Source: Escherichia coli (GTDB lineage Bacteria; Pseudomonadota; Gammaproteobacteria; Enterobacterales; Enterobacteriaceae). Taken from it: DNA of 648 nt. The notes below the pieces were generated by a model. That model saw only the letters and a program-made list of their open reading frames with translations. It was not told the origin of the DNA and made no database searches. The stretch is taken from assembly GCF_003334385.1 (NCBI RefSeq), contig NZ_QOWN01000155.1; one strand, 5' to 3'. Positions within the stretch are counted from its first letter, which is position 1; each line of letters starts with the position of its first letter. The translations under genes and the position numbers were made by a program. Positions 1 through 648 of the stretch are shown here, one piece after another.

Positions 1-648
1 ACAGGCACGGGCACAGAACGCGCAGTATCTGAGCGAACGCCTTAAGGACCAGGCAGCCTTTTATGCCGAATCGGATGTGCAGCGTGCGGACTGGCAGAAA
101 GGGCTGCAGGAGGGGCTCAGTAACTGGGTGGACAATGCATCCGATTACGCCTCTCAGGCAGCACAGCTGGCAACGGAGGGGATTTCAGGACTGGTGAATA
201 ACATCACGGAGATGCTGAACGGAAACAAAGTGGAATGGCGCAACTGGGCCTCATCCGTACTGCAGGAAATATCAAAAGTTCTTATGAATGCGGCCATTGT
301 CAACGGAATTAAGACGGCGGCAAACGGTATGTCCGGTGCGGGAGGATTTATTGGCAGCATTGGTGACTGGCTGGGCGGTGCGGTGGCCAATGCAAAAGGC
401 GGCGTGTATACCTCGGCAAACCTGAGCGCGTACAGCAACAGTATTGTGGATACGCCCACGTACTTTGCCTTTGCAAAAGGGGCCGGGCTGATGGGGGAAG
501 CCGGACCTGAAGCCATTATGCCCCTGACCCGGGCGGCGGATGGCTCGCTGGGCGTACGCGCGGTGGGCAGTATGAACGGGAGTGCGGGTCTGGTGTATTC
601 CCCGGTCTACCACATCGCCATTCAGAATGACGGGGCCAACGGTCAGAT
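1..648 (+). CDS. Phage tail tape measure protein (lambda gpH-like), internal/C-terminal fragment; partial at both ends, codon phase begins at nt 2 (complete codons 2..646)
   Basis: Seen in sequence: the +2 frame is open across the entire window (215 codons, no stop), whereas the +1 frame hits TAA at 43-45. Codon usage is GC-rich at third positions with frequent CTG/CAG/GCG, typical of enterobacterial genes. From recalled knowledge: the translation has a QA-rich helical region with aromatics at 11-residue spacing, a Gly-rich hydrophobic segment (AANGMSGAGGFIGSIGDWLGGAVANA) and a C-proximal 'HIAIQNDGANGQ' block resembling lambda gpH's 'HVVINNDGTNGQ' region. No start or stop codon of the gene lies in the window. 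Confidence 0.88.

Follow-up and report, generated by a model that had tools for sequence, protein, structure and literature searches.

A 648-base fragment of Escherichia coli DNA as a very probable internal, near-3′ piece of a lambda gene H-like tail tape-measure gene

Tail tape-measure proteins (TMPs) are very long, mostly helical proteins, the length of which scales with the length of the tail. In lambda this protein is gpH, which fills the tail tube's lumen and sets the length of the tail (PMC12617516, PMC10721106). Cleavage of gpH yields two products, gpH* (about residues 1 to 690-710) and the C-terminal fragment gpHC, and it is gpH* that leaves the tail on infection and makes up at least part of the channel through the periplasm (PMC12617516, PMC10721106). 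The only part of gpH that has been resolved is residues 818-849, seen in the tail tip as a bundle of three helices that sits on the gpI trimer; the preceding residues, ~690-817, are unresolved (PMC12617516, PMC10721106). The cleavage that yields gpH* has been placed in a glycine-rich zone at residues ~691-712, a zone that also carries a weak transmembrane prediction, and both the role of the gpHC region and the cleavage site are open questions in lambda itself (PMC12617516).

The window, by which we mean the whole 648-base stretch of DNA that was analysed, contains one open frame, +2, of 215 codons with zero stops (Table 1). This is the single continuous plus-strand reading frame from which the earlier note set out, and the other five frames of the window translation contain 7, 8, 6, 8 and 3 stops. 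At the base composition of the window (57.6% G+C) the chance of encountering 215 open codons is ~1.4e-4. Both the start codon and the stop codon lie outside the window, which is internal to its gene.

The same note had proposed that the frame encodes the C-terminal region of a gpH-like TMP, and this proposal was borne out when the 215-residue translation was compared with profile HMMs and, by BLASTP, with gpH. The translation scores 178.5 bits (E = 1.9e-52) against the NCBIfam model TIGR01541 (tape_meas_lam_C), for which the curated cut-off is 104.75 bits, with residues 2-211 covering model positions 119-332 of 332, and the cut-off is passed by the fragment alone. The Pfam model PF09718 (Tape_meas_lam_C) is matched over model positions 2-73 of 76 (67.2 bits, E = 1.3e-18). 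The best PHROG is phrog_1716 (`tail length tape measure protein'), matched over its positions 676-890 of 943 with E = 2.7e-106, and three more tape-measure PHROGs match at E <= 1.6e-35, giving four such families altogether. On the evidence of these three independent profile libraries, the translation is the C-terminal region of a tape-measure protein. We are highly confident that the window is an internal, near-3′ piece of the equivalent of lambda gene H, carried by a siphophage or prophage of the lambda family in Escherichia or a close relative.

The gene is a common one. Of 5426 complete E. coli genomes, 1264 (about a quarter) match the window DNA, with a median of one place per genome and a maximum of seven; the matching places number 2931, six of which are on plasmids rather than chromosomes. 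The best E. coli matches listed are annotated `phage tail tape measure protein' throughout. Across these genomes and the phage records the top DNA identity is 97.8%, a value shared by E. coli IAI39 and ABU 83972. A further 91 phage records match at 90-97% (best 96.8%) and are mostly Stx-converting lambdoid phages; in Stx-converting phages and other lambdoids the TMP gene is 95-97% identical to the window in DNA. The TMP genes of ABU 83972 (WP_000212987.1), Stx2a_WGPS2 (YP_009909099.1, Sawaravirus) and vB_EcoS-569R3 (URC09470.1) are 96.6-97.8% identical to the window over all 648 bases and free of indels, and none of the named relatives (these three and IAI39) is identical to it. A set of IMG/VR relatives was also compiled, consisting of 56 loci with a 39-base pattern that contains three window-specific bases; the best of these loci is 96.6% identical to the window. 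In genome_contigs neither this pattern nor a conserved one of 32 bases has a match, and none of the collections searched contains an identical copy of the window. The tape-measure gene of the window is already known: it is ordinary, abundantly sequenced and routinely annotated.

Comparison with these relatives also bears on whether the frame is translated. The GC content at codon positions 1, 2 and 3 of frame +2 is 0.61, 0.47 and 0.65, a pattern typical of enterobacterial coding DNA. There are 14 base differences between the window and its closest relatives, IAI39 and ABU 83972, of which 13 are synonymous and one results in V26A, the sole amino-acid difference between the window and IAI39. When the window is compared with 53 ungapped relatives, 1503 codon changes are synonymous and 378 are non-synonymous, counts that are made per sequence and do not represent independent events. 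The synonymous bias, taken together with the intact frame and the GC content by codon position, argues that frame +2 is a real coding frame on which purifying selection acts.

Two open reading frames on the minus strand, at 154-516 (120 residues) and 272-613 (113 residues), raise the alternative that one of them is a real overlapping gene. Both are open in all 53 ungapped relatives, but neither has a PHROG match at E <= 0.01 and a minus-strand gene is annotated in none of the four inspected records. The relatives are 92-98% identical to the window and their changes fall mostly at third positions of the sense codons, which would leave the antisense frames open as a by-product; from codon geometry, stops in one of the antisense frames would need the rarely used sense codons TTA, CTA or TCA. 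The antisense frames are most likely to have been kept open by the constraints and codon usage of the sense frame, and we give an overlapping gene virtually no credence. A search of both strands of the window against Rfam at E <= 1 returned no RNA family match.

An imperfect 19-nucleotide direct repeat (386-404 and 467-485, 79%) encodes ANAKGG and AFAKGA, and is probably a chance match in glycine/alanine-rich coding sequence. This direct pair, together with one inverted pair that is 72% complementary, was judged to be due to chance, and repeats were not retained as a feature.

Table 1. Features of the window and their correspondence to lambda gpH and other tape-measure proteins. Base positions are those of the window; aa, residues of the frame +2 translation.
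Feature	Position	Strand	Basis or counterpart
Tail tape-measure protein (TMP) gene fragment	2..646	+	Open frame; TIGR01541, PF09718, PHROG 1716; annotation of relatives
Tape_meas_lam_C domain	89..304 (aa 30-101)	+	PF09718; gpH ~628-698; the only stretch clearly similar to gpH
Gly/Ala-rich hydrophobic segment VLMNAAIVNGIKTAANGMSGAGGFIGSIGDWLGGAVANAKGG	278..406 (aa ~93-135)	+	Alignment to gpH ~691-712
Conserved motif block YFAFAKGAGLMGEAGPEAIMPLTRAADGSLGVRA	461..562 (aa 154-187)	+	Shared with the 612-residue TMP of PDB 25vf
Pre-helix segment HIAIQNDGANGQ	611..646 (aa 204-215)	+	Matches gpH 806-817 HVVINNDGTNGQ
End of the gpH* body, including Tape_meas_lam_C	aa to ~92		gpH 607 (aligned with aa 9) to ~690
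Gly/Ala-rich hydrophobic zone	aa ~93-135		gpH ~691-712
Region unresolved in lambda	aa after ~135 to 215		gpH to 817

Lambda gpH (NP_040595.1; 853 residues; PDB entries 8iyk, 8iyl and 8k35) provides the reference for the layout in Table 1. With phmmer, residues 9-215 of the translation align with gpH 607-817 (E = 4.9e-14; chains of 8iyk, 8iyl and 8k35), while the BLASTP alignment pairs residues 14-100 with gpH 612-698 at 33% identity over 87 residues (E = 5e-15), a level that agrees with the earlier suggestion that the protein is diverged from lambda itself. When the full-length TMP of ABU 83972 is compared with gpH, the last ~350 residues align (25% identity over ~400 columns), but the N-terminal ~730 residues of the 1080-residue relatives do not, and these relatives exceed gpH in length by 227 residues. 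What the window and gpH have in common is membership of TIGR01541 and PF09718, the Tape_meas_lam_C domain, the glycine-rich zone and an NDG(A/T)NGQIGP junction ahead of the C-terminal helix; the slot that the TMP gene occupies in the tail module of the relatives is likewise that of lambda H. The window ends one residue short of the equivalent of the resolved gpH helix (818-849). The 33 residues that follow it in the relatives correspond to gpH 818-850, and the C-terminus of the ABU 83972 protein, NDGANGQIGPEAAGSLVQLIDQRVQAVMLSMRRDGGMLSG, aligns with NDGTNGQIGPAALKAVYDMARKGARDEIQTQMRDGGLFSG of gpH.

The hydrophobicity of the glycine-rich segment was assessed on the Kyte-Doolittle scale, on which the maxima are at residues 91-95 and 119-120; glycine makes up 33% of residues 106-135. 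By analogy with the corresponding zone of gpH, the segment may have a role in cleavage or in membrane insertion. A transmembrane helix was considered for the window and was not called: the 19-residue Kyte-Doolittle maximum is only ~1.0, where the usual transmembrane threshold is ~1.6.

Beyond the glycine-rich segment, the window resembles a tape-measure protein other than gpH. The best solved-structure match by E-value is the 612-residue TMP of PDB entry 25vf (E = 2.8e-16), which shares with the window a Tape_meas_lam_C domain, a glycine-rich linker and the block G-E-x-G-P-E-A-I-M-P-L...G-x-L-G-V-R-A. The stretch of 25vf aligned with the block is GERGPEAIMPLSRGSDGVLGVRA; the lambda alignment is poor across the same stretch, and gpH shows nothing that clearly corresponds to the GEAGPEAIMPL block. 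The probable identity of the 25vf chain is the F7 pyocin protein PyoF5, judging from its length of 612 residues and from the residues modelled for the TMP of that pyocin, 579-611 (PMC12874032). A second match of this kind is to NF058675, the model for RcGTA-type TMPs, over residues 67-191 (E = 1.3e-20), a span that contains the conserved block.

These matches suggest the alternative that the TMP in question is not that of a phage but that of a headless, tail-like particle such as a gene transfer agent or F-type tailocin. The strength of the 25vf match, its GE(A/R)GPEAIMPL block and its fit to PyoF5 point in this direction, as does the match to the RcGTA-type model, but the latter, at 74.1 bits, falls well below the model cut-off of 220, and the 25vf and RcGTA-type TMPs, which belong to headless particles in other bacteria, are of far smaller size. 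Moreover, the near-identical relatives of the window (95-98% DNA identity) are all found in lambdoid prophages or phages. Head genes accompany the tail genes in those of the inspected records that extend far enough: terminase, portal and capsid genes are present upstream in Stx2a_WGPS2, and portal and head-completion genes are present in ABU 83972 and vB_EcoS-569R3. A headless origin is accordingly regarded as highly improbable.

The gene context was inspected in four relatives: IAI39, ABU 83972, Stx2a_WGPS2 and vB_EcoS-569R3. In the last three the TMP gene is 3243 bases long and encodes 1080 residues, of which the window represents 832-1046. In all four relatives 100 bases of the gene lie beyond the window, which starts 2495 bases in from the beginning of the full-length gene; in IAI39, for example, the window is followed by 33 codons, IGPEAAGSLVQLIDQRVQAVMLSMRRDGGMLSG, and then the stop. 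A stop codon a few tens of codons downstream had been predicted by comparison with gpH, and the distance is indeed 33 codons in the four relatives, compared with 36 residues after the aligned end in lambda. The family had also been expected to lie between the G/GT genes and M, L, K, I and J, and this is the arrangement seen in ABU 83972, Stx2a_WGPS2 and vB_EcoS-569R3, where the tail gene order is V-G-T-TMP-M-L-K-I-J-lom. In these three intact relatives the upstream side of the TMP gene carries the gene for the major tail protein and a pair of small genes whose annotations read `tail assembly chaperone' and `tail assembly protein T'. On the downstream side, the M homologue overlaps the TMP stop by 8 bases and is followed by L, K (a C40 peptidase), I, J and lom.

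The neighbourhood recurs among the IMG/VR relatives, in which a neighbour was called when a tblastn match reached E <= 1e-10 and covered no less than 60% of the query as a single piece. An M-like gene is present at the expected distance downstream in 49 of the 50 relatives with enough DNA, an L-like gene in 40 of 48, K and I in 27 of 41, and G and T in 18 of 23. The missing neighbours could result from module replacement, from IS insertions or from incomplete stored flanks.

A -1 frameshift site linking G and GT, likewise anticipated upstream, was located in the relative Stx2a_WGPS2. In the stretch at 9138-9175 the G-like gene of this phage ends ...GCC AGA AAA AAG TAG. The zero frame thus reads the heptamer A AAA AAG directly before the stop, and 27 bases later comes the ATG annotated for T, which is in the -1 frame. 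Stx2a_WGPS2 therefore has the conserved frameshift arrangement of G and G-T. The slip site itself differs, being A AAA AAG in Stx2a_WGPS2 and G GGA AAG in lambda, and the lambda heptamer GGGAAAG is absent from the coding strand of the Stx2a_WGPS2 G/T region. G and T are annotated separately in this record, with no G-T fusion.

Some further features of the inspected records were observed. Three transposase genes (an IS element) lie on the opposite strand at 15370-17705 of Stx2a_WGPS2, between the I-like and J-like genes. The portal gene of ABU 83972 is frameshifted. In IAI39 the TMP pseudogene is located between mlrA and btsS (5802-12748 of the inspected record), where it adjoins an IS629-family transposase fragment and a group II intron reverse transcriptase (ltrA).

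The bases at which the window differs from IAI39 and ABU 83972 (78, 103-104, 271, 292, 295, 427, 442, 451, 469, 580, 586, 637 and 643) are distributed as a patchwork of variants found elsewhere in the family. T78 and GC103-104 are present in IMG/VR alleles of 92-97% overall identity, and A271, G292, C295, T442, T451, C469 and G586 are shared with Stx2a_WGPS2 only. The window bases at 427, 580, 637 and 643 are matched in none of the four aligned relatives, and the remaining window bases outside the Stx2a_WGPS2-type and IMG/VR-type variants agree with IAI39 and ABU 83972. The patchwork is consistent with recombination among tape-measure alleles and represents the ordinary mosaicism of lambdoid tail genes. 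The most likely source of the window is a genome or metagenome contig from Escherichia, Shigella or a near enterobacterial relative, outside the collections searched.

That IAI39 is one of the two closest relatives bears on a different reading of the locus, in which the parent copy is a decaying remnant: a TMP gene, truncated or inactivated in some other way, within a cryptic prophage that has ceased to make tails. The IAI39 copy (97.8% identity) is a pseudogene without its N-terminus, next to a partial integrase and to sequence from IS629, IS3 and a group II intron; the locus is a decayed prophage in which the tail-tip end of the module alone has been kept. In addition, 3 of 53 relatives have an in-frame stop where the reading frame of the window has its codon 5. 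The three are related IMG/VR contigs, and the stop is likely to reflect either pseudogenised copies or a shared sequencing error. Against decay of the parent copy, the window frame is intact and, of the 14 bases that separate it from its closest relatives, 13 are synonymous changes. ABU 83972, which is equally close, has the full 1080-residue gene and, over the part inspected, an intact tail module, although its portal gene is frameshifted. The remnant reading is the sole rival with real weight, and on balance we consider it unlikely.

If the TMP to which the window belongs functions as gpH does, its G and G-T chaperones would keep it soluble, it would thread the growing tube's lumen, and its length would set the length of the tail, with the C-terminus anchored in the tip on a gpI-like plug. 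The part covered by the window would then comprise the end of the tube-filling body, the glycine-rich cleavage zone and the N-terminal part of gpHC. On infection the tip would open and the TMP would be ejected, to form, as in lambda, at least part of a DNA channel that spans the periplasm. We infer these roles in assembly, cleavage and ejection by homology with lambda.

For annotators, the window can be labelled `phage tail tape measure protein' and assigned to a phage or prophage tail module; the NCBI pipeline already gives that label to near-identical copies in more than 1000 E. coli genomes. The window is mildly useful for what it covers: the glycine-rich region, together with the stretch of the C-terminal fragment that the lambda structures leave unresolved. 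We regard it as something of a long shot that the glycine-rich segment and the YFAFAKGAGLMGEAGPEAIMPL...LGVRA block constitute a discrete, widely conserved functional module of TMPs, situated between Tape_meas_lam_C and the C-terminal helix. In the tail-tip structures considered, the region that corresponds to this putative module is disordered. Were it to exist, the module could be a processing site, a membrane-inserting element or a plug element.
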